64,000 nt of DNA from a virus (lineage: Duplodnaviria; Caudoviricetes), in IMG/VR virus record IMGVR_UViG_3300020440_000014, positions 8,781 to 72,780 of that record. One strand, written 5' to 3'. The notes beneath the pieces were generated by a model. The model had not been told where the DNA came from, did no database searches, and saw nothing but the letters and a program-made list of their open reading frames with translations. Below, piece after piece: positions 7,877 through 37,399 of the stretch (position 1 is its first letter; every line of letters starts with the position of its first letter). Made by a program: the position numbers and the translations under genes.

Positions 7877-10800
7877 ATGGCTCATCAAGACCACATTGTA
7901 GATAGATTATCGACTCGACTTAGTTCGCTTCTTCCTGATTATATCAAAGATGAAGCGCCTATATTCGAATCGTTTCTTGAAGCATATTTTGAATATCTTG
8001 AGAGTGAAATAATTACGCTTGATACAATCCAAGCACTAGAAGGTACGAAGTTCGAGGACGGTACTCAAATCGATGGAGGTTCACTTCTTATCGAAGAGGG
8101 TACCGACCCAACTGCACCCGACATAGCAAACGCTAAACTTTTACAAGAAGGTACAATCGACCCATTTCAAGTAGGTGAATACATCTACGGCGAATCAAAT
8201 GGTTCTATTGCAAAAATTAAAGTTATTAATGATAAAACACTTATCGTTGATACAATTTCAGGAACAGGTTTCGCTATTGGCGAAACAATTAAAGGTCGAG
8301 ATGGTAATCAAACTGCAACAATTAAAACATACAAAGAAAATTCAGTCGTTGCAAATAATAGATTATTAGATTACTCAGACATAGATTCAACACTTGAAAC
8401 TTTTTTAGAATACTTTCAAAAAGATTTCATACCATCTCTTGACCTAAAAGATACACAAAACAAAAGACTTACTCTTAAGAATATAGGTTCATTGTACAAA
8501 CAAAAAGGTACACCTGAATCTGTTCAATTCTTAATGAGATTGTTGTTTGGTCAAAATGCCACAATTAAATATCCAATAGACGAAACAACATCAGCTTCAG
8601 ATTCAGATTGGCAAGAAACCAGAAGAATGAATATAACTATGACTTCTGGTTTAGGTAAACCAAAAGCAACCGATAAAGTAGTACAATATAATCAGAATGA
8701 TGCATCTATAATCGATGCAGAAGCTGTAATAGAACAAGTACAAATTATTGATTTAAATAATTTTAGATATTCTATTTCTATAACCACAACACATAGAGGC
8801 GAATTTCAACCTAACAGACAAGTATCGATAATCGATAGAGACGGTATAACATCTTACGTAGCAAATGTTAAAGGTATTATTTCAGATATTTTACCTGATG
8901 AGTCTTCAACATCATTTGGTCTAGAAAACGAAAATGGTGAATTATTATTAGAAGATGGTTCTTCTATATTATTTGAAAACACATCGATTGGTTCGATGTA
9001 TAATATAAACGATGTCATTAATTTTACTGGTTCAAAAATAGATACAGGCGAAGTAGATGCCAAAGCAGTTGTAACAGGACTATCAAGAGGTCCAGTCGAA
9101 CATGTATATATTGAAAATGCAGGTTCAGGTTATTCTGCTGGAGACATTGTAATATTTGAAGATGAAAATACAGAAGGTGCTGGTGCAGAAGGTATAATTG
9201 AAGCAGTAGGCGATGAAATTATACTTGAAGATAGTATTGCATTAGACCAATACACATTGACTGCTACAGCAAATCAAACCACATTTGGTGGAGTCGATGC
9301 AGATGGAAATAGTATTCGAGATAATGGTGGAAAACCATTTGCATTAAATGGTTTAGATGTCAAAGTATTCGTAAACGGAATAGAGCAAAACAGAGACAAT
9401 TATGATGTTAGATTAGATAGAGTTGTATTTACTACAACACCAACGCCTGACGGTGGGGAAAAAGTGGAAGTCTTTTCTAGTTTTCAAAGAATTTTACAAG
9501 AAGATGGAGATGCTGTACATCTAGAATCTTCAGACCAAAGAATAAGAAGAGTTAAGATAACAAATGGCGGTTCTGGTTATCAAATTTTACCAAGAGTTTT
9601 TCCAGGTGGTTATCTATACTTCGATGATGTTTCAGGTTACACTGCTGGTGAATTAGTCACAGGTGCTGGTGGTGCTACAGGTGAGATATCTAAAATAGAT
9701 AATGCCAATAATAGACTCGTCATTAGAAGATTATCTACACATACAGGCACATTTAACACCAACGAAATTGTAACAGGGTCTTCTTCGTCTACAGCAAAAA
9801 CATGTACTCTCGCAAAAGTTACCTCAGGTACAGGTGGTAATTTATTCGCTTGGTCAACAAAAATTGGTGGTATCGAAAATATCAGAATATCAAGTCAAGG
9901 TTATGATTTCGATGAAAATGCTAGAGTAGCAAGCGATTCAACATTTAGTATATTGATGACAAATCCATCAGCTGAAGCCGATTTACAAAAAGATGTGGTT
10001 ATCACAGGTTCAGATTCAGGTTCAACTGCTAATATCATATCATTCGACAATCAAAGAAACATATTAAAGATTACTGGTTTAGATGGATTCTTTTTGCCTA
10101 ACGAAAAGGTTACATATGCTAATAATCAAAGTTTTCGTGTCTTACAATTCGACCCATACGATGCCAGAGGTAAGTTTGCAGGTGAGGGTATTATAAACGA
10201 TAATTTCTTTGGTGAAAAGAGTTATGTTTCAAATCAATATGCAAATTTACAAGATAGTAAATATTATCAATCACACTCATATGTAATTAGAGTAGGTGAA
10301 TCAATTGAAAAATATCGTTCTATTGTCAAAGATTTAGTTCATCCAGCAGGTCATTTATTTTTTGGTGAAGTTGCAGTAGAAAACATCATCGTATCAGATA
10401 CAAAAGGTGGTAGATTTAGTAGAAGAATCGATGTAGATGGTGTTGATAACTCTCTTGCATTAGAACAAAGACAATTTCTACCAACTTTAATTATACAATT
10501 AGAAGAAACAAGTCATCTCTTACTCGAAGATTCAACTAGAGATAATGTAAATCGCTTTGTTATGGAAGATGGTTTCACTTATGTTGAAGATGATGCCGCT
10601 TTCGAATCATCAGCATCAACAAAGAAAGAAACAATAGTTCTTGTACATACTAAGAAAGAAGAACTTGATTCATATAACATGTCTCATATATTAAGAGATT
10701 TTGTCCAACAAGCAACCAATCATGATAGAGACTATCTAGATGCTGGAAGACAAACAATAACACAAATTAAAAAATTCTTATCAAGTGAAACTGATACAAA

Positions 10801-21882: not shown

Positions 21883-23124
21883 ATGGCTAACGACATTTAT
21901 ATAAAACATAACTTCGCACAAACGCCTGACGGAAGTTTTCAACAACCATATATACATCAGGTATCAGTCGATAGTCAAACACCTCTTGAGAGTCAAACTC
22001 AAATTGTTGCTCAAAGAATAGCACAACAGCCTGCTATTGCACAACAACCTTCTAGAGTTTCAACTCAACAACAAAATACGGTTTCTGCTCAATACACATC
22101 TCAGATTCAACAAAATCAACCTTATACATTTCAAACACTATTACAAAATGTAAATCGTCAGGTATCGTTAAGAGATGTAGATAGACAAATATCTTATCGA
22201 ACTCCTTCGCCTTCACCTTCAACGTATCAAGTGGTTGAAAATGTTCAACAACCAAATACAAGACCGGTACCATCATCAGTAGCAGCACGATATGCCAACT
22301 CAGTACAGAATCCTTTTGTAGATGATGCACATATATTTGTTTCATATACTGCTAGACGGCCTTCTCCTTATATATCACAACAACCTGTAATAGTGCAAAC
22401 ACCAGGCAATGCTCCTTCTACACAACAAACGATTAGAGAAGAAATATATGTTGCAAATGCAACTAAAAGAACTGAACTACACCGCAGTGTGTCTGCTTCA
22501 AGTTCATTAGCCAATCCTGGTACAATAAACAATTATATGCACGTTAGTATATTTGAAAATGATGATGATTATAACTTTTATTTCCGTGTTAGAACTGATT
22601 CAAATGCTAATGGTTCTAAATTACTTCAATTAGAATCAGGTCAAACAACAATGCCTACATCAGGTGTCGGAACCATAGTGGTCTTTTTTCGATTTCCAGC
22701 TGGTTCTATTCCTAGTTCATGGGCTATAGACGTTGGCCCTATTTCGGTGACAACATCTGGTGCAGGTTCAGGCGGTAATATTACCTTATCTGATGGCGGT
22801 TCTCATCCTAGTTCAACATATGATATGGGAAATGTTGTTCAGTTTGACGGCAGTTCTAGTTTTGCTACTTGGTCTGAAGATAGTTTTGGTATGAATGTGC
22901 AAGCCACTGGCAGTCTAAGTTCTTTAAGCGGCGCCGGAACATATGTAATAGGTGGGTCTTTTCCTGTGAGATTTAGATTTAATCATTCAGACAATAGAGG
23001 AACTTTAACACAAACTTATGCAGTAAATATGTACAATCAATTTAATGTAACGTATAATCAGTCGCCTTCACCATCACCAGGATTCCAACCTTTCGGTAGT
23101 TTCAACCCAGGTGATATAAGGTAA
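21883..23124 (+). CDS. Q/P-rich repeat protein with a beta-rich C-terminal domain (putative virion protein)
   Basis: The N-terminal half is Gln/Pro/Ser/Thr-rich (QQP, QPYTF); the C-terminal part is S/G-rich. Confidence 0.6.
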   Translation: MANDIYIKHNFAQTPDGSFQQPYIHQVSVDSQTPLESQTQIVAQRIAQQPAIAQQPSRVSTQQQNTVSAQYTSQIQQNQPYTFQTLLQNVNRQVSLRDVDRQISYRTPSPSPSTYQVVENVQQPNTRPVPSSVAARYANSVQNPFVDDAHIFVSYTARRPSPYISQQPVIVQTPGNAPSTQQTIREEIYVANATKRTELHRSVSASSSLANPGTINNYMHVSIFENDDDYNFYFRVRTDSNANGSKLLQLESGQTTMPTSGVGTIVVFFRFPAGSIPSSWAIDVGPISVTTSGAGSGGNITLSDGGSHPSSTYDMGNVVQFDGSSSFATWSEDSFGMNVQATGSLSSLSGAGTYVIGGSFPVRFRFNHSDNRGTLTQTYAVNMYNQFNVTYNQSPSPSPGFQPFGSFNPGDIR

Positions 23125-23129
23125 ATGAT

Positions 23130-23768
23130 ATGAGTAATCAACAACAACAATGGCCTTTTATTACGTCAACTCCGACTCCAGCTAGATATGCTAATAGTGG
23201 TCAACAGCAAAATCCATACCCAGCAATTCGTCAAGCGCCTTATACTTTTCAAAACCCAGGTCCATCGATTGTTCGAACACCTGTATTAACACAGGTACAA
23301 ACTCAACAGGATTATCGAACACCATTTACATATCGACATACAGAGAACAGGCAAACCATAGTTCAGGTTACAGCGCAACAACCTACACTTTATCAAACTC
23401 AACAACCGATAATATATCAAGGTCGACAACCTACTCCTGCTATAAGACAAAATCCTGTCATATATCAAAACCCGATTATAGTTCAGTCGCCTGCTATTGT
23501 TCAAACACCTCAAAGAAATAGTGTTCAACAGAGAAATAGTTTTCAACAATCTTATAGAACTCAAACACCATATACTTTTAGACAACCTTCAATTGTTCAA
23601 CAAACAAATACAGGCACTAGACCAATTCAACAGGTTGCTAAAGTTAAAGCAGTATACGTCAAGACAGCGGTTGGTGTACAAAAACTTGATGAAATCTTTG
23701 TTAAAAAAGATAGTAGTACCGTTGAGAAAATACACCAATCAGTACCTACTGCTCAATTAAACAAATAA
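23130..23768 (+). CDS. Q/P/T/Y-rich repeat protein
   Basis: RQAPYTF, RTPFTYRH, QQPIIYQ, RQNPVIYQ repeats; C-terminal AVYVKT module. Confidence 0.65.
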   Translation: MSNQQQQWPFITSTPTPARYANSGQQQNPYPAIRQAPYTFQNPGPSIVRTPVLTQVQTQQDYRTPFTYRHTENRQTIVQVTAQQPTLYQTQQPIIYQGRQPTPAIRQNPVIYQNPIIVQSPAIVQTPQRNSVQQRNSFQQSYRTQTPYTFRQPSIVQQTNTGTRPIQQVAKVKAVYVKTAVGVQKLDEIFVKKDSSTVEKIHQSVPTAQLNK

Positions 23769-24367: not shown

Positions 24368-24375
24368 TATAAATA
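24368..24375 (+). promoter_or_regulatory. Late promoter TATAAATA preceding a long structured leader
   Basis: Exact consensus, about 140 nt upstream of ATG 24516. Confidence 0.75.
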
Positions 24376-27250: not shown

Positions 27251-27278
27251 AAAGGGGGCATTTCGCCCCCTTTTTTTT
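27251..27278 (+). terminator. Rho-independent terminator
   Basis: AAAGGGGGC-ATTTC-GCCCCCTTT followed by a T run. Confidence 0.9.
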
Positions 27279-30416: not shown

Positions 30417-31280
30417 ATGGCAACAGGTTCACAAAAAGTAAAAACACCATCGGGTTGGAATAGTACTCGAGGTGCTTGGGTAAAAACAGGTGCAAGTACT
30501 TGGAAAGATGCAGACCAAATCTACATCAAAACGCCTTCAGGTTGGAATAACGCATCTGGTCAAACAAGTGTTCAACAACCTTATCCATATATTGCAAATG
30601 CTCAGAATCCTGTAATTAGAAATAGACAAAATCCATATCCTTACATAGCAAATGCTCAGAATCCTGTAATCAGAGACGCTCAAGAGCCTAATATTAGAAG
30701 TGCTCAAGAGCCTAATATTAGAAGTGCTCAAGAACCTAATATTAGAGATGCAAGACAACCTGCTATATATCAAGTTAACGTGCCTTCTAGAAGTCCATTT
30801 ACATATCAACACAGGTCACCGTTTACATATAGAAATCCGGTGAGTGCTCAAGAACCTAATATTAGAAATAGACAAACACCATTTACATATAGACACCCAG
30901 CATCTGCTCAAGAACCTAATATTAGAAATGGTCAAACACCATTTAGATACCCAGCAAATGGTCAAACGCCATTTAGATATCCTGCTAATGCAAGACAACC
31001 TGCTGGTTATAGAGCAAGTGCTAGACAACCATTTACATATCAAGCGCAATATAGAAGTCCATTTACGTATCGAGCAAGATATCCAGCTATTTACTCTTTT
31101 AGTTTTCAAAGCCCGTTTAATCAAACTGACCCACAAGCTGATGGACAAACACCTTATAGAGCGTCAGCTCAACAACCTGCGATTGCTAGAAGTCCGTTTA
31201 GATATATAACGCCAGCTAGACAACCATACTTTTATACATTCGGCGGTTTCGGCGGTTTCGGTGGTTTTAATATAAGGTAA
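30417..31280 (+). CDS. Pro/Gln/Arg/Tyr-rich tandem-repeat protein with an N-terminal KT..W module
   Basis: VKTPSGW/WVKTGASTWK/IKTPSGW N-terminus, then AQEPNIR, RSPFTY, GQTPFRYPAN and RQPFTY repeats; ends GGFGGFGGF. Confidence 0.75.
   Translation: MATGSQKVKTPSGWNSTRGAWVKTGASTWKDADQIYIKTPSGWNNASGQTSVQQPYPYIANAQNPVIRNRQNPYPYIANAQNPVIRDAQEPNIRSAQEPNIRSAQEPNIRDARQPAIYQVNVPSRSPFTYQHRSPFTYRNPVSAQEPNIRNRQTPFTYRHPASAQEPNIRNGQTPFRYPANGQTPFRYPANARQPAGYRASARQPFTYQAQYRSPFTYRARYPAIYSFSFQSPFNQTDPQADGQTPYRASAQQPAIARSPFRYITPARQPYFYTFGGFGGFGGFNIR
30678..30749 (+). repeat. 24-nt coding tandem repeat, three copies (AQEPNIRS)
   Basis: gctcaagagcctaatattagaagt twice plus a near-identical third copy. Confidence 0.9.
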
Positions 31281-31314
31281 ATGATATGAATAGTTTAAGT
31301 AGGAAAAAAATATA

Positions 31315-32037
31315 ATGCCATCAGGAAGAAGAATAGTAGGCTCAAGAGCATCAGGTCAATCACCTGGTAATGTTGGAAATCCGTTTACTTATAATAATAG
31401 GCAGCCATTTACGTATCCACATTCCGTACAGGCTCGACAACCAAACATTGGTTCTGGTAGTTATCGAGCAAGATATCCTGCTAACGGTCAACAACCTGTT
31501 CCTTATATTGCTAATGGTCAAACACCATTTAGATACCCAGCAAGTTATCAAATACCATTTACATATAGAGCAAGTGCTAGACAACCATTTACATATAGAG
31601 CAAGTGCTAGACAACCATTTACATATAGTCATAGGTCACCGTTCACATATAGACACCCAGCAAGTGCTAGACAGCCATCTACGTATCAACATAGGTCACC
31701 GTTTACATACAGAAATCCAGTAAACGGTCAAGAACCAAATATACGTGACGCAAGACAACCTAATATAGTTCAACAATCCAGAAACTATCAAATACCATTT
31801 ACGTATCAACACAGGTCACCGTTTACGTATCAACATAGGTCGCCATTTACGTATCAACACAGGTCACCATTTACGTATCAACATAGAAGTCCTTCTACAT
31901 ATGCTAGACAAGGTCAGACACCAACTACGTATCAACATAGAAGTCCTTCTACATATGCTAGACAAGGTCAGACACCAGTGATACGTTGGGATAATGACTT
32001 GGCTAATCAGTGGCCAGGTTCTCCTGTGACTGGATAA
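31315..32037 (+). CDS. Pro/Gln/Arg/Tyr-rich tandem-repeat protein
   Basis: 11 PFTY copies in 240 aa (RQPFTYRASA, QHRSPFTY). Confidence 0.75.
   Translation: MPSGRRIVGSRASGQSPGNVGNPFTYNNRQPFTYPHSVQARQPNIGSGSYRARYPANGQQPVPYIANGQTPFRYPASYQIPFTYRASARQPFTYRASARQPFTYSHRSPFTYRHPASARQPSTYQHRSPFTYRNPVNGQEPNIRDARQPNIVQQSRNYQIPFTYQHRSPFTYQHRSPFTYQHRSPFTYQHRSPSTYARQGQTPTTYQHRSPSTYARQGQTPVIRWDNDLANQWPGSPVTG
31798..31977 (+). repeat. Coding tandem repeats: four 24-nt units (QHRSPFTY) overlapping a 54-nt-period duplication
   Basis: tttacgtatcaaca(c/t)ag units at 31798, 31822, 31846 and 31870; 52-nt identity between 31872-31923 and 31926-31977. Confidence 0.9.
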
Positions 32038-32071
32038 ATAAGTTAGTACAAGCTAATAAAAACTTTATATT

Positions 32072-33679
32072 ATGAAAAGACTCACGTTAAAAGAAGCCCA
32101 AGAACTATTTAAAGACTACGATTCAGAAAAATTTCCTAATTCAACTACAACTCAAATTGGTCATTTTGATATCGTCAAAGATAAACAAATAGGTCAAAAT
32201 AAAGAACAGACAATTGAAGTTTTACATTGGATATATGAAAATGTAACTAGTTATCCAAAAATTGTTAAATGGAAAGAAGTTAGAAAAATATTTCAAACCG
32301 AATTATCTCATAATAATTATAAATTAAGTAGTTGGGGCAAACTCAAACATCCATCTTTTATCTACAACGCATTATTACCAAAAGTCTATACGTCAGAACC
32401 TGAAGTAGCTGCTCCAGGTTTTTTAGGTTTTGGTACTAAGAACCTAAAAGACGAACACGATGACTTATCTCATTTATCAGATGTTACAAGAGAAACAGAT
32501 TTAGTAAAATCATCTTACTATCATGCTGCTAAAGCACACTGGTTAGTGCAAGACATAAGAAAAAACGGATTATGGAATAGACCGCAAGGCAAAGTATATA
32601 AAGATGGAGATAATCGTTTTAGACTTATGATGCATCCAGGTTCTGTTCGTTCACAGGTCATTGAAATGTTAGATGATGATGATTTAGAACTTATGATTTA
32701 TGATAAACATAATTTATTTCCAGATATACAACCTACGACTCTTGAGTTTATGCTCGATGAAATAAAAACAAGAATTTCAGAAATAGAAGAGAATGATGCC
32801 CTTTCACGTAAGTTGCATACAGATGTTTCTTTTCATCTTTCAGCTGGAGGATATATTGAAATGAGTTCATCTTTAGCACATATGCATAATATGGATTTTA
32901 GAACTGAGGTTTATAAATTTAATAGACAAGTGACCGAATTATCTTCAGGTAAACCTATTACAATCTATGTTGGTTATGATAGTAGACATGAAAACATATC
33001 TGAACAAGCAAAAAGATTAATTGATTTAAGAATAGCACAAAGTCTCGGTGGAGGAGATATAACAGGTCTCTTCAAGTGGTTTAAACCTGAAGTCAAGTTA
33101 TTAGATATTTCAAAAATACCAGAGTATACAAGAGAATATGCAAACCAGTCTACTGAATTCACTTATAGTAGATTTTTGATACCTTATCTAGAAAATTATG
33201 AAGGATTCAGTATGTTTGTTGACAATGATATTTTATTCAGAGAAACGCCTTTACCCTTTTTATATTTTTTAAATCCAGAAGACGCTGTAGCTTGTGTACA
33301 ATACAATTTTGATAAACACGATGAAACAAAAATGGATGGCGAAAAGAACGTCTCTTATCCTAAAAAGCTTTGGTCTTCATTAATGGTTTTCAATAATAGT
33401 CATGAAGATTGTAAGAAGTTAACTCCTGAGGTAATCAATACAGAATCAGGTAAATATCTACATCAATTTGAATGGACAAATGCAATCAGTGAAATACCAG
33501 AATCACATATTGTCACTGAAGGATTTGATACGTTAAAAGATAAACCACATGCATTTGCAATACATTATACAAGAGGTGGTCCTTGGATAAAAAACATGAA
33601 TTTAGACAACCTAAATATGCTTGACGAATATCAAAACATGATTAATAAAATACAAGTAGAGGAAAACTTTTTAAAATAG
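32072..33679 (+). CDS. Fusion of an unknown N-terminal domain with a C-terminal GT-A glycosyltransferase (GT8-like phage family)
   Basis: IYVGYDSR, STEFTYSRFLIPYL, FVDND (DxD), KKLWSSLMVFN, LHQFEW, HYTRGGPW. Late promoter variant GATAAATA at 32033. Confidence 0.8.
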   Translation: MKRLTLKEAQELFKDYDSEKFPNSTTTQIGHFDIVKDKQIGQNKEQTIEVLHWIYENVTSYPKIVKWKEVRKIFQTELSHNNYKLSSWGKLKHPSFIYNALLPKVYTSEPEVAAPGFLGFGTKNLKDEHDDLSHLSDVTRETDLVKSSYYHAAKAHWLVQDIRKNGLWNRPQGKVYKDGDNRFRLMMHPGSVRSQVIEMLDDDDLELMIYDKHNLFPDIQPTTLEFMLDEIKTRISEIEENDALSRKLHTDVSFHLSAGGYIEMSSSLAHMHNMDFRTEVYKFNRQVTELSSGKPITIYVGYDSRHENISEQAKRLIDLRIAQSLGGGDITGLFKWFKPEVKLLDISKIPEYTREYANQSTEFTYSRFLIPYLENYEGFSMFVDNDILFRETPLPFLYFLNPEDAVACVQYNFDKHDETKMDGEKNVSYPKKLWSSLMVFNNSHEDCKKLTPEVINTESGKYLHQFEWTNAISEIPESHIVTEGFDTLKDKPHAFAIHYTRGGPWIKNMNLDNLNMLDEYQNMINKIQVEENFLK

Positions 33680-33681
33680 TA

Positions 33682-33710
33682 TTGTAATTAAAGACCACTT
33701 AGTATATAAT
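33682..33710 (+). promoter_or_regulatory. Host sigma70-type promoter TTGTAA-N17-TATAAT
   Basis: Near-consensus hexamers with 17-nt spacing, followed directly by AGGAG and ATG 33721. Confidence 0.6.
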
Positions 33711-33720
33711 AGGAGTTATT

Positions 33721-34272
33721 ATGAATATGTTAATTTATTGTGAAAATGGAAATCTAACCATCAGAAAATCAAATGGTTTAGAATATACCTTTAATAATAC
33801 AGATAAACCAAATTTTGGTTTTGAGTATGATGTCATCATTTACGATGACATAGAAGTAAAGATTTTAGAGTGGAAAGAAAATGTTCCTTTTGATAAACAA
33901 GAACATATAACTCTAAATGAAACAGAAATCGATGCTATTGAGCAGTACATAGAAAATTCAGAACCGCCTGAAGGCCATTCGTTAAATCAACAATATAGCA
34001 ATCAACTATGTAATATGACAAACAATTATTGTCAAGAACAGGCTCAAAATTATGGTTTTAATGACTTATTGGAAGTTATGATAGCAGCAAGAGAGGGTTC
34101 TTGTCACCCATTTAGAATTAATGCAAGAAGAACCTTAGAATATTATGATGCAGTCTGGTCGGTATATGATAATCTTATGCAAGAGATAATCAATACAAGA
34201 GAAGATGTGTTAAGAGAATATGAACATTATGCTTCTGCTATACCAACTCCAGTGAGACCACCTCAAGCTTAA
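33721..34272 (+). CDS. Hypothetical protein; C-terminus resembles tail-fibre assembly/chaperone proteins
   Basis: QAQNYGFNDLL...A......F...A....YYDAVW pattern, recalling the GYD.....W...VW motif of tail assembly proteins (by eye). Confidence 0.45.
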   Translation: MNMLIYCENGNLTIRKSNGLEYTFNNTDKPNFGFEYDVIIYDDIEVKILEWKENVPFDKQEHITLNETEIDAIEQYIENSEPPEGHSLNQQYSNQLCNMTNNYCQEQAQNYGFNDLLEVMIAAREGSCHPFRINARRTLEYYDAVWSVYDNLMQEIINTREDVLREYEHYASAIPTPVRPPQA

Positions 34273-34275
34273 ACA

Positions 34276-34947
34276 ATGCAAGTCGAGTATATAGATGCTC
34301 CATTTAGCATTGAAAAATTACCTTTAGATAAAATTTATGTAATTGACAATTATCTAGAAAAATCATTACATCATTTTTTTGACAAGTATATCACAAATGC
34401 TTCAATATGGTCTAAAACCAATCAAGTCAATTCAATTAGCCCAACAGGTTTGCCTCATCATAGTTTTTGGGGAGGAAGTTTTTTTAGAACAAAAAATGGT
34501 TTGAAGACTATCGAAACAGACATGGAACCAAGGCATACTTATTTTGCTGATTTTTTAGATAAAAGAATACAAACCGATTTTGGTTTCGAATGGATTAGAT
34601 TTCAATATATGGGTTTAAATTCACAAACACACGGACTACAAGGAACTACCCATTCAGATTGCCCAAAAGAAGATGAATGGAATCTTTCTTTTTTATATTA
34701 TTACAATAGATATTGGAATAAAGATTGGGGTGGTGTATTGAGATTTTACGATGAGCATCAACAAGGGCTAGATGGTCGTGATGAACACATACAGAATCAT
34801 CAAATTGCAGAAGTTGAATTTAAACCCAATCGATTATTAATGTTTGACGGAAGAATACCACACGGTGCAGATGCGCCGAATGAAAATGCAAGATATATGG
34901 ATAGAAGGTCAGTTGTGTTGAGAGGAGATGAAGTATGCCTACTATAG
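34276..34947 (+). CDS. 2OG-Fe(II) oxygenase, prolyl-4-hydroxylase-like
   Basis: HSD...LSFLYY.N..W..DWGG.L.F...FKPNRLLMFDG.IPHGA...R: HxD...H triad plus the 2OG-binding Arg. Confidence 0.85.
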   Translation: MQVEYIDAPFSIEKLPLDKIYVIDNYLEKSLHHFFDKYITNASIWSKTNQVNSISPTGLPHHSFWGGSFFRTKNGLKTIETDMEPRHTYFADFLDKRIQTDFGFEWIRFQYMGLNSQTHGLQGTTHSDCPKEDEWNLSFLYYYNRYWNKDWGGVLRFYDEHQQGLDGRDEHIQNHQIAEVEFKPNRLLMFDGRIPHGADAPNENARYMDRRSVVLRGDEVCLL

Positions 34948-35774
34948 ATTTTATCTCATTCACCGAAGAAACGGTAAGATTAGTAAAACCAGTTTTAGCT
35001 AAAAAAGCTCAACCTGAATGGTGGAAGAAATCAAAAATAGCTGATATCACACATGGCGAAATAGCCAGAACTATTAGAAGTTGTCCTGCGATGGACGATT
35101 GGTTAAAGTCTGGTTGGATTATTGAAACATTACATGATATAGATGTGATACAAGGAGATAATAATGGTACATTTAATTCTGAATTTAAAGTAACAACATT
35201 GCCTCATCATGCTGTAGCATCGCCAAGCCATCCCGAAACACAATTAAATAATTTTTTACCATACGGTTTAAACGATAGAATCAAGTCTGCTTTTAAAATC
35301 AGACAACCATGGAATGTTATAACTCCGCCTGGTTATTCATGTTTATTCTTAGACCCATTTCTTACTAACAACATACACTTTACGGTATGGCAAGGAATTA
35401 TAGATACAGATAAATTTAATGTAAATAACGATAATGCTCAAATGATATTTTATCCTAAAGTTAATCATAGTTTTACGATAAAAAAAGGCACAGCATTATG
35501 TCAAATTATACCTTACAAAAGAGAAGTCTGGACTGCAACGTATCAAGTACATTCTAGTAAATCTTATATAGAAAATAGAAATAAAGTTACCAAAAATGTT
35601 GAAAATACATCTATGGAAGAATATAACAAAGATTCTAAATATGAAGTAGACAACGCATTAGGCGGCGCAAGTCCGTATAGAAGAGAAGGACAATGGCAAG
35701 AAAAAGGTAAATTGTATAAAGAAAGTGAACCGCCACCAGAGTGCCCATATCACGGTAAAATAGAAAATGATTAA
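34935..35774 (+). CDS. Conserved marine-phage hypothetical protein
   Basis: TIRSCPAMDD, K...PW...TPPGYSCLF..P, GIIDTD, IKKGT.L.QIIP..RE; this family is often found beside 2OG oxygenases. Confidence 0.65.
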   Translation: MPTIDFISFTEETVRLVKPVLAKKAQPEWWKKSKIADITHGEIARTIRSCPAMDDWLKSGWIIETLHDIDVIQGDNNGTFNSEFKVTTLPHHAVASPSHPETQLNNFLPYGLNDRIKSAFKIRQPWNVITPPGYSCLFLDPFLTNNIHFTVWQGIIDTDKFNVNNDNAQMIFYPKVNHSFTIKKGTALCQIIPYKREVWTATYQVHSSKSYIENRNKVTKNVENTSMEEYNKDSKYEVDNALGGASPYRREGQWQEKGKLYKESEPPPECPYHGKIEND

Positions 35775-36441
35775 GTTGATGTTTCCAGCTTTTGTTTGTG
35801 TCAAAGAATTTCTTGATAAAGATTCAGAACAATATCCAAATATGACAAGAGAGTATTTTAAGATACTCAAAGATGAAATGGATAACATGCAAAAGTTAGA
35901 CCCTAAAGGTAGAAATGTTTCTAATTCAGGAGGTTGGCAGTCTAACGATGGTATAGAATCTAATCCTATATTTGTTAAAGCATATCGTACAATTAAGAGA
36001 GTCGTAGCAAATGAATTGGTGCCTGCTTTAGGTTTAGAAAAAAATTCTTTTAATGTTGTAATGCATAACTCTTGGGGTAATATGAATTTCAATGGCAATT
36101 TCAATAAACCTCATCTACATAATGGCTGTTTTTATTCTGGTGTCATGTATATTAAAGCTGATGGTGATGAAGGAAATTTAGTATTTGTAGATACAAATCA
36201 TAAAATAGCAGGTGTATTTCCACCAAATCCGATGATGAAAGAATCGGAGATATATTCACCTAGAACAGGCGACTTATATTTGTTTCCTAGTGGTTTGATG
36301 CATATGGTAGAACCGAATCTAACAGATAAAACCAGATATAGTATATCATTCAACTTAGAAGTTAATGGTGGTCAACGAAGAGAAACTATTCAAAATGAAC
36401 ATTTAAAGTATGAAGTGAATGATGAGGGTGACTGCTTTTGA
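35767..36441 (+). CDS. Putative 2OG-Fe(II) oxygenase (TIGR02466-like)
   Basis: SWGN.N...FNKPHLH.G.FYSGVMYI...G.L.F...P..GDLYLFPS.L.HMV.PN...RYSISFN. Confidence 0.85.
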   Translation: MIKLMFPAFVCVKEFLDKDSEQYPNMTREYFKILKDEMDNMQKLDPKGRNVSNSGGWQSNDGIESNPIFVKAYRTIKRVVANELVPALGLEKNSFNVVMHNSWGNMNFNGNFNKPHLHNGCFYSGVMYIKADGDEGNLVFVDTNHKIAGVFPPNPMMKESEIYSPRTGDLYLFPSGLMHMVEPNLTDKTRYSISFNLEVNGGQRRETIQNEHLKYEVNDEGDCF

Positions 36442-36453
36442 TAAATAGTATAT

Positions 36454-36717
36454 ATGGACAATATAGTTATAGACCCAACATTACTTTGGAATTTAATTCT
36501 TTCTCTTATCATAGTGCCTGTGGGTGTTCTTGTTAGAACTATTCTAGCAGAACAAAAAAGAATGGATATTCTCATTAATAAAACAAGAGAAGAAATAGCA
36601 AAAGATTATGTAACTAGAGACCAGTTAGAAAAGGATTTAGAGAAATTAATTTCTACGGTAGAAAGAATGGACGAAAAACTTGACAGAATCCAGACCAAAA
36701 CTTATTTTCAAGACTAA
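36454..36717 (+). CDS. Small protein with one N-terminal TM helix and a coiled coil
   Basis: LLWNLILSLIIVPVGVLV hydrophobic stretch; late promoter variant GATAAATA at 36440. Confidence 0.65.
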   Translation: MDNIVIDPTLLWNLILSLIIVPVGVLVRTILAEQKRMDILINKTREEIAKDYVTRDQLEKDLEKLISTVERMDEKLDRIQTKTYFQD

Positions 36718-37399
36718 AGAAGATTTTTTACAAAGTCAATCACTCAGAGAAAATTTTCAAAATTGCCAAGGAGAAGTAACTCGATTTGATACAGAGTCTT
36801 TGCCTGATTGGTACAAAGAGCATTTTGAATTATTACTCAGTCATTATAATATAGAACCTACATACGATAGTTTTCTATATCATTTCGAAAAATATCATTT
36901 AACACCTTATGATTGTTCTAAGTATCTTTGGTTAAAAGATAGTGTTAAAAAAGAAAACACGTATTGTCCTAGTCAGTCTTTTTATAATCCATCAGAATTT
37001 GATAGTAAAGAATTATTTCATGCCGGTAGATTAAAGTCTTTGGTCACATATGAAATGAATGTTGGTTTATATGATATATGGACTCGCAAAGACCATCCAA
37101 AAGATTGGATAGAATGGTCTTGGATAAAACCCATGACTTATGAAGAGTGGTTATCTGAATATCATTTTAATGAAAATATAATACATTATCATTACATGAA
37201 AGATAGAAAAGTTATATGTGTTTTAGTTCAAAAATCTAATAAACCCGGTCTTCGTGAAAAATATGGCGACCTAATAGATAGAGTTTACAATGATGCTAGA
37301 TTTACGGTAGATGGTATTGTCTACTCTTATGATGATTTGAAAACTAAACGATATTGTATTGATTCACAATTAGAACCAAAAATCGAGTTTATGGAATGA
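36680..37399 (+). CDS. Hypothetical protein
   Basis: 239-aa ORF in the operon direction; no recognised motif. Confidence 0.55.
   Translation: MTESRPKLIFKTKEDFLQSQSLRENFQNCQGEVTRFDTESLPDWYKEHFELLLSHYNIEPTYDSFLYHFEKYHLTPYDCSKYLWLKDSVKKENTYCPSQSFYNPSEFDSKELFHAGRLKSLVTYEMNVGLYDIWTRKDHPKDWIEWSWIKPMTYEEWLSEYHFNENIIHYHYMKDRKVICVLVQKSNKPGLREKYGDLIDRVYNDARFTVDGIVYSYDDLKTKRYCIDSQLEPKIEFME

Follow-up and report, generated by a model that had tools for sequence, protein, structure and literature searches.

Gene organization of the locus

We analyzed a 64,000-nucleotide (nt) stretch of viral DNA (hereafter, the window), which is the part from base 8781 to base 72780 of an IMG/VR viral contig of 72.8 kb (IMGVR_UViG_3300020440_000014; estimated completeness 40%). 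Our subject is a block of seven open reading frames (ORFs) within it, in which two repeat proteins are followed by a glycosyltransferase (GT) fusion and by 2-oxoglutarate (2OG)-Fe(II) oxygenases. A previous interpretation made from the sequence alone (the sequence-only reading) had proposed that the phage may hydroxylate and glycosylate its own fibre or decoration proteins. The seven ORFs were recovered as described there, all on the plus strand, in an unbroken run in which neighboring genes are 3-42 nt apart or overlap by 8-13 nt. Together with two ORFs that precede gp13, they are:

30417-31280, plus strand: RepA, 287 amino acids (aa), with a conserved N-terminus, repeats of 6-10 residues and a Gly/Phe-rich C-terminus
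31315-32037, plus strand: RepB, 240 aa, with repeats of the RepA type, a variable N-terminus and a conserved C-terminal motif
32072-33679, plus strand: GT535, a two-domain protein with an alpha/beta domain (residues 1-290) and a GT8-like GT-A domain (295-535)
33721-34272, plus strand: u183, a conserved acidic protein of 183 aa
34276-34947, plus strand: ox223, a 2OG-Fe(II) oxygenase of the prolyl 4-hydroxylase (P4H)/PHD type, PF13640
34935-35774, plus strand: u279, a DUF6065-like protein with a predicted dUTPase-type fold, homologous to Syn9 gp43
35767-36441, plus strand: ox224, an oxygenase of PF13759 (2OG-FeII_Oxy_5)
36454-36717, plus strand: s87, a small protein, hydrophobic at its N-terminus and coiled-coil-like in the remainder
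36680-37399, plus strand: u239, an extra 239-aa ORF of this genome only, located inside the wider block in the interval between s87 and gp13

The block was also correctly placed within the virion morphogenesis region. Matches to PHROG structural and tail-fibre families and to tail-fibre genes of phage Melnitz were obtained with the ORFs upstream, and the downstream genes are gp13 (Ad2), gp14 (Hc2) and gp15. Among cultured phages, the closest in gp13 are three marine myoviruses, Melnitz, HTVC008M and Mosig (52-54% identity). The closest T4-type late promoter motifs lie on the plus strand at 24368 and 45457, and the number of such motifs is not above chance.

Repeat proteins with one proline per unit

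At the DNA level, RepA and RepB consist of tandem repeats of 24-60 nt. Both had been described as extremely Pro-rich. Pro is indeed the commonest residue, but it accounts for only 12-13% of the sequence, or one Pro per unit of 6-10 residues, and the description was therefore overstated. Besides Pro, the proteins are rich in Gln, Arg, Tyr and Thr and are strongly basic (33 Arg and Lys against 11 Asp and Glu in RepA, and 28 against 4 in RepB). The conserved N-terminus of RepA comprises about 48 aa and carries a VKTPxGW motif two or three times, and its repeat unit can be written as [Q/R]-x-P-[F/Y/N]-[T/I]-[Y/R/A]. RepB ends in the conserved motif RWDxxxxxxWPxxP(I/V) and has 169 relatives in IMG/VR. 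Between the conserved ends, the number of repeats varies freely in the family. The open frame is kept in 150 related Rep ORFs (213-774 aa), and the 8-12 PF[TR]Y units of each Rep protein in the window are encoded by 6-7 different DNA versions. These features, together with the conserved RepA N-terminus and RepB C-terminus, show that the Rep frames are coding.

The surroundings of Pro were examined with 4242 prolines from 90 distinct Rep proteins. Position -2 is occupied by Gln or Arg in 85% of cases (Arg is found there in 42% of the units), position +1 by Phe, Tyr, Asn or Val, position +2 by Thr or Ile (69%) and position +3 by Tyr, Ala or Arg (84%). The distance from one Pro to the next is most often 8 residues (45%), followed by 6 (29%) and 10 (7%).

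A C-terminal domain of the Hint/intein type, starting at GGGG|CF.AGT and ending in VHN, was present in 19 of 71 RepA relatives. Its score against the Intein_splicing/Hint profiles was 45.1 bits in one relative (L031; cut-off 35.8), and other RepA relatives gave E-values of 1e-6 to 1e-8. The domain was found at:

L031:2854-4158, L033:3173-4603, L060:4651-6975 and 16 more loci: RepA relatives with a poly-Gly linker followed by the catalytic Cys, and a VHN end

Since this domain is self-cleaving, RepA appears to be processed post-translationally in some relatives. RepA of the window has no Hint domain and ends in its Gly/Phe-rich stretch just before the point at which the relatives would cleave themselves.

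Two database similarities of the Rep proteins, to Pseudomonas phage proteins (E 5e-4) and to the Pfam family Cementoin, were rejected as compositional, and a literature search on the PFTY repeat returned nothing relevant. Two plus-strand ORFs of the structural region, 21883-23124 and 23130-23768, contain degenerate Q/P-rich repeats (QQPY, QPYTFQ, SPSTYQ). In addition, extra Rep-like ORFs occur in three related genomes (G004-G006), at a distance of 8-10 kb from the main Rep pair.

Oxygenases and associated proteins

The assignment of ox223 as a P4H-like 2OG-Fe(II) oxygenase was supported by its match to PF13640 (37.1 bits, gathering cut-off 27). In a profile search of the PDB, all of its solved relatives were prolyl hydroxylases, with 6t8m first (E 0.001), followed by PHD, Tpa1 and EGLN1. 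The entry 6t8m was deposited as "prolyl 4-hydroxylase subunit alpha" and is, we assume, the Dictyostelium Skp1 hydroxylase PhyA. Among 25 sequences, H126-x-D128, H196, R210 and R216 are invariant, which provides the HxD...H iron triad and a candidate 2OG-binding Arg. We rejected the label "DNA endonuclease V" that ox223 receives from PHROG 274, as the profile matches only prolyl hydroxylases in the PDB. The same label, carried into RefSeq, covers Syn9 gp51 and gp53, Mosig_00058 and S-SSM4 CYXG_00079, which are 2OG-Fe(II) oxygenases in our analysis, and it looks misleading for these proteins. In some relatives the ox223 ortholog is a 414-aa ORF with about 190 additional N-terminal residues (for example, L075:11075-12319 and L050:3316-4560).

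ox224 proved to be a second 2OG oxygenase, as had been proposed (PF13759, 70.9 bits). Its invariant residues are H116, H118, H179 and R190, and its family is TIGR02466-like, with two PDB relatives, 3bvc and 2rg4, both uncharacterized.

The "conserved unknown" protein encoded at 34935 is conserved and could now be placed, as a DUF6065-like protein with a dUTPase-type fold. An hhalign comparison with Syn9 gp43 gave 96.6%, and one with a protein of genome G001 that passes the Pfam DUF6065 threshold gave 99.2%; u279 itself falls below that threshold. Foldseek matched u279 to dUTPases (E 5e-4) using a model of modest confidence (predicted local distance difference test, pLDDT, 64). Residue C50 is invariant, and only one of the five dUTPase motifs is evident: a GIIDTD stretch which, judged without an alignment, we take to resemble motif III. 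The best match to Pfam dUTPase had an E-value of 0.13. In three related loci (L028, L157 and L159) the spacing between the u279 and ox224 homologs is about 1.3 kb above the usual, and an extra gene has probably been inserted there within the block.

The proposal that u183 is tail-assembly-like was not supported, in that the protein matched no Pfam, PHROG or PDB profile. Per-member Pfam scans and hhalign comparisons with Syn9 gp40 and gp47 also gave no support to such a role. The language-model neighbors of u183 (Caudo_TAP_N, XkdW and DUF4376; 0.83-0.87) were sub-threshold.

Conservation of the block and its recurrence in a second lineage

Related loci were collected with RepB, and in 80 of 80 the full block was present in the same order wherever the contig allowed: fibre, RepA, RepB, GT535, u183, ox223, u279, ox224, s87 and gp13. 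Identity to the window was 61-82% for gp13 and 41-70% for the block proteins. A single-protein scan of IMG/VR with GT535 gave no match and an alignment-based profile was needed, which yielded 77 further loci; Rep genes were found in all 55 of these with more than 2.5 kb of upstream sequence. Thus, the transferase is coupled with Rep and hydroxylase genes in 135 of 135 informative loci, all in one clade.

The core of the block was also found in a second T4-like lineage (gp13 40-46% identical), of which two near-complete genomes, G001 and G002, were read. In G002 (gp13 40% identical; L194:10650-15653), the genes downstream of a 647-aa protein with QPYSY/PYPFQ repeats are, in order, a PF13640 gene, a u279 homolog (hhalign 97%), a JmjC gene, a PF13759 gene, an LtfC-like gene and gp13. 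The G001 ortholog of the repeat protein has 625 aa and QPAYSVTTNYPSR repeats, and a PF13640 gene is located 44 nt downstream. After it come a DUF6065 gene, four small ORFs, a second u279-like gene, a JmjC gene and a PF13759 gene, then the fibre genes and gp13. The location is:

L201:7570-12974 with L200:222-2435: the G001 cluster, which has two DUF6065-type paralogs

This cluster lies upstream of the fibre genes and does not adjoin gp13. The difference in placement between G001 and G002 indicates that the cluster was kept together while its position changed. BLAST and HMMER searches with RepB, run with a positive control, did not detect the repeat proteins of the second lineage; these share the Q-P-x-Y theme with Rep. 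At another site in G002, a homolog of the C-terminal half of u183 (hhalign 98%) is located directly upstream of the ox223 ortholog (E 5e-51), and u183 and ox223 form a conserved pair.

The block is modular, and its core, which recurs across deep divergence, consists of a repeat protein and the PF13640, DUF6065-type and PF13759 proteins. The co-occurrence of repeats, transferase and oxygenases that the sequence-only reading called for is invariant in the clade, and the pairing of repeat protein and oxygenase extends to the second lineage, but the transferase is uncoupled from them there.

The glycosyltransferase fusion

The identification of the ORF at 32072 as a GT-A glycosyltransferase fusion was supported by its predicted fold and by weak phage homologs. 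In the GT535 model (pLDDT 83.5), residues 295-535 adopt a GT-A Rossmann-like fold nearest to GT8. VIA-align ranked 3tzt (GT8, Z 15.2) and LgtC (Z 14.5) as the best matches, with 190-217 residues aligned in each case, and Foldseek was concordant. Further close folds are the Skp1 alpha-galactosyltransferase 6mw8 (Z 14.0), GlyE (Z 14.0), WbbM (Z 13.9), glycogenin (Z 13.2), PBCV-1 A64R (Z 12.0) and the catalytic domain of UGGT; 6mw8, GlyE, glycogenin and A64R are GT8 enzymes that glycosylate proteins. D384-x-D386, H498, G502, G503, P504 and W505 are invariant among 27 GT535 sequences, and the DxD and H...GGPW positions presumably correspond to the GT8 signature. No Pfam family was matched at E <= 0.01, Glyco_transf_8 included, and the sole family match was PHROG 28018, of unknown function. 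Phage homologs found by tblastn are annotated as glycosyltransferases and are 29-40% identical. The model thus places GT535 as a divergent relative of GT8 by fold and not as a sequence-level member. Pfam and PHROG searches with the nine block ORFs revealed no other glycosyltransferase. Nor does the block encode GT60 Gnt1, GT95 HPAT or a similar family that places the first sugar on hydroxyproline (Hyp), its sole transferase being GT8-like.

Residues 1-290 form an alpha/beta domain with an invariant HPGxxRS motif. This domain had no Pfam match at E <= 5, to ParB/Srx families or to any other, no match in Atlas and no shorter homologs in a word-indexed search. Structure searches were otherwise filled by the GT domain, and only a search of BFVD found a counterpart, a 256-aa phage protein. 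Upstream of the window, on the minus strand, there is an apparent operon of a HAD hydrolase, CTP_transf_3 and a paralog of the GT535 N-domain (L002; G000:C1:5400-8753). The paralog has 257 aa (BLASTP E 1e-8), and CTP_transf_3 is a cytidylyltransferase of the CMP-Kdo/CMP-nonulosonate synthetase family. The company in this operon suggests that the GT535 N-domain handles an activated sugar.

Possible modification of the repeat proteins and alternative explanations

Recurrence of the core across deep divergence is best explained if its enzymes modify the repeat protein. We consider it possible, and propose tentatively, that the dioxygenases of the block modify the phage's own fibre-like repeat proteins. 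In this scheme RepA and RepB would resemble fibre proteins, would probably be associated with the virion and would be produced late in infection, along with the tail fibres and neck; the position of their genes, the conserved terminal segments that might serve as anchors and the Q/P-rich segments in other structural-region ORFs point to a place in the virion. Each repeat unit would present one Pro in a fixed context, and ox223 (probably with u183), ox224 and u279 might hydroxylate the units, with this Pro as the likeliest target. A further step, which is far less certain, may be the transfer of an alpha-linked hexose by the GT8-like domain of GT535 to the hydroxyl of Hyp, Thr or Tyr. A P4H-family oxygenase has been detected in the virion proteome of a cyanomyovirus (PMC12801897). 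Of the earlier interpretation, we retain the link between repeat proteins and oxygenases, for which the synteny within the clade, the second lineage and the single Pro of each unit in its conserved context argue.

Several observations weigh against this proposal, and we describe them together with the explanations that they favor. Searches for near-identical DNA in cultured phages found none, and the block itself is carried by no cultured phage. Co-occurrence inside the clade is inseparable from common descent, and the conserved context of Pro could be purely structural. For PBCV-1, a virus with an active virion-associated P4H, virions were found to lack detectable Hyp according to a review (PMC7019647).

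One alternative, which the sequence-only reading had also raised and which we regard as somewhat unlikely but with real support, is that the enzymes are accessory (auxiliary metabolic) genes gathered at hot-spots of the structural region and acting on host metabolites, small peptides or host proteins, whereas the Rep proteins are unmodified fibre or whisker proteins. Arrays of 2OG oxygenase genes do precede gp13 in phages that have no Pro repeats: Mosig has a co-oriented array with ho1 and pcyA, and HTVC008M has four such genes on the opposite strand, with PF13759 homologs at this same place in both. Likewise, an ox223-like gene is located between the terminase genes of S-SSM4, HTVC008M also has 2OG genes between its terminase genes, and in the cyanophage Syn9 an array comes right after the fibre genes. 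The proteins that precede the arrays in Syn9, Mosig and HTVC008M are Gly-rich (22-35% Gly) and not Pro-rich. The Syn9 array, including its dUTPase-fold protein, was read as secondary-metabolite machinery by Iyer et al. 2010 (PMC2938197), and marine-phage 2OG oxygenases have been treated as putative auxiliary metabolic genes (PMC11561400). On the other hand, a variable island would not be expected to stay invariant in more than 130 loci at 41-70% protein identity, as the block does, and the G001 cluster of repeat protein, PF13640 and DUF6065 genes is intact at a different genomic position. Moreover, in Melnitz, where the fibre genes run straight into gp13, oxygenases and repeat proteins are both missing from this locus.

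The second lineage also bears on the transferase. A profile search of the whole library located the two-domain GT fusion there after the clamp and clamp-loader genes, overlapping a gene for an NT5C 5'-deoxynucleotidase; it is followed by an M12 peptidase gene, an isocitrate lyase gene and a PF13759 gene, an island that again fits accessory genes. No Rep, u183, ox223 or u279 gene was found within 10 kb of it, and the standalone homologs of the GT domain in phages have no Rep neighbors. The contexts of distant GT535 relatives were taken from IMG/VR only, and two of the queries (P0027 and P0020) yielded no loci. The GT fusion is a mobile gene linked to Rep in the main clade alone, and because it lies with replication genes in the second lineage, the link to glycosylation is weak. 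Given this location, and given that GT535 is GT8-like and not of a first-sugar-on-Hyp family, the glycosylation step of the earlier interpretation was not supported.

The acceptor of GT535 could equally be a host glycan. According to this explanation, GT535, possibly together with the CMP-sugar genes of the phage, would modify glycans of the host envelope (lipopolysaccharide (LPS) core or capsule) and alter the cell surface, with no relation to Rep. Many GT8 enzymes act in this way, enzymes of LPS or O-antigen synthesis (LgtC and WbbM) are among the closest folds, and the paralog of the N-domain has genes for a cytidylyltransferase and a HAD hydrolase as neighbors. The separation of the GT fusion from the repeat protein in the second lineage is consistent with it too, and glycosyltransferases of cyanophages have generally been interpreted as modifying the cell wall (PMC12801897). 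However, the fold fits protein and glycan acceptors alike, and GT535 is found directly 3' of RepB in a late structural string in more than 130 loci. On balance, we think a host-glycan role unlikely.

A third explanation takes nucleotides or the phage DNA as the substrates, with an oxygenase and a GT-A enzyme working as in base J synthesis and the dUTPase-fold protein serving pyrimidine nucleotides. u279 has the fold of a nucleotide enzyme, with the GIIDTD stretch that resembles motif III as judged without an alignment, its homologs in haloarchaeal viruses adjoin thymidylate synthase and DNA polymerase genes, and the GT fusion of the second lineage overlaps a nucleotidase gene, as noted above. 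Nevertheless, both oxygenases fall outside the TET/JBP and AlkB types, and the solved relatives of ox223 are all prolyl hydroxylases. The u279 model is modest and its Pfam dUTPase match not significant, and the genes are placed with late structural genes, whereas a DNA-modifying system would have to act during replication. This explanation seems to us very improbable.

An extended form of our proposal would be a multi-step tailoring of the phage's own appendage proteins: Pro hydroxylation by PF13640 enzymes, oxidations by PF13759, JmjC and DUF6065-type proteins, and glycosylation by a GT8-type enzyme, resulting in fibres that resemble extensins or mussel glue. We find this fuller scheme doubtful.

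Relation to known systems

Two features of the locus are of already known kinds, namely the phage dioxygenase array and the viral P4H accompanied by Pro-repeat proteins. An example of the first is Syn9 gp41-gp54, a tandem dioxygenase array of a marine T4-like phage (Iyer, Abhiman, de Souza and Aravind 2010, PMC2938197), whose published reading is secondary metabolism and names no protein substrate. Both the block and the Syn9 array combine several unrelated 2OG-type dioxygenases with a dUTPase-fold protein that has a conserved Cys, co-oriented and located after fibre genes, and the u279 homolog gp43 lies inside the Syn9 array. Unlike that array, the block is short, has no halogenases, includes the GT8-like fusion and u183, and is preceded by Pro-Tyr repeat proteins instead of Gly-rich ones.

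As for the second, the chlorovirus PBCV-1 also encodes a P4H-type enzyme and short Pro-containing repeat proteins. It is a virus of eukaryotes, its repeats are of the PAPK type, and the genes for enzyme and substrate are not known to be adjacent. ox223 is only a distant relative (its best E-value in the PDB search, 0.001, was for 6t8m). According to a review, the PBCV-1 P4H is sequence-specific on peptides and found in virions (Eriksson et al. 1999, cited in PMC7019647).

The order of events in our proposal, a P4H followed by protein glycosyltransferases, is that of the cytoplasmic Skp1 pathway of Dictyostelium and Toxoplasma (PhyA, Gnt1, PgtA, AgtA or Gat1), whose alpha-galactosyltransferase ranks with the nearest structural matches of the GT domain. 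In contrast to that pathway, the block has no GT60 (Gnt1-like) enzyme for the first sugar, and it is a distal sugar that the GT8-type enzyme of the Skp1 pathway adds. The Skp1 substrate is one Pro in a folded protein, whereas here it would be a repeat array. Extensins and other Hyp-rich glycoproteins, as well as mussel foot protein 1, are basic proteins of short Tyr/Pro-rich repeats, and their properties depend on hydroxylation and, in plants, also on Hyp-O-glycosylation. The Rep proteins are similarly basic, Tyr- and Pro-rich and built of short repeats; unlike these proteins, they have a single Pro per unit and no SPPPP or PPTYK-type motifs. They also differ from plant extensins in being cytoplasmic, not secretory, and GT95 and GT77 enzymes are absent. 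Finally, mycobacteriophage glycosyltransferases encoded next to structural genes reportedly modify the phages' own virion proteins (work attributed to Freeman et al. in 2023). That system differs in its glycosyltransferase families and in having no oxygenases, and its targets are C-terminal extensions of capsid and tail-tube proteins.

2OG-Fe(II) oxygenases are among the commonest unexplained genes of marine phages and have mostly been classed with auxiliary metabolic genes (PMC11561400) or with enzymes of secondary metabolism (PMC2938197). The locus described here and its counterpart in the second lineage name concrete candidate substrates, repeat proteins with one Pro per unit directly upstream of a P4H-type enzyme, so that the old question of what these oxygenases act on becomes testable. 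If our proposal is correct, it would represent a new class of bacteriophage virion modification with a possible bearing on adsorption, particle stability and recognition. If the full tailoring pathway also exists, the "orphan" 2OG-Fe(II) oxygenases of ocean phages would gain a substrate, and a hydroxyproline-type modification would have been shown in a bacterial virus for the first time. Should the proposal be wrong, the block would still define a large clade of uncultured phages and be a useful marker of it.

Additional observations

Several minor features of the region were noted. In none of the 157 related loci did we find the extra ORF u239, which begins with a TTG codon in an overlap with s87 and may truly start further downstream. 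We considered it as a third paralog of the GT535 N-domain and did not accept this assignment (BLASTP E 0.18, hhalign 29%). A strong terminator-like hairpin on the plus strand at 27251-27273 (a 9-bp stem, 6 of its pairs being GC, and a T run after it) is located 3' of a 136-aa ORF of the fibre region, inside the long string of structural genes. At the other end of the block, s87 is directly 5' of gp13 in 77 of 80 related loci.

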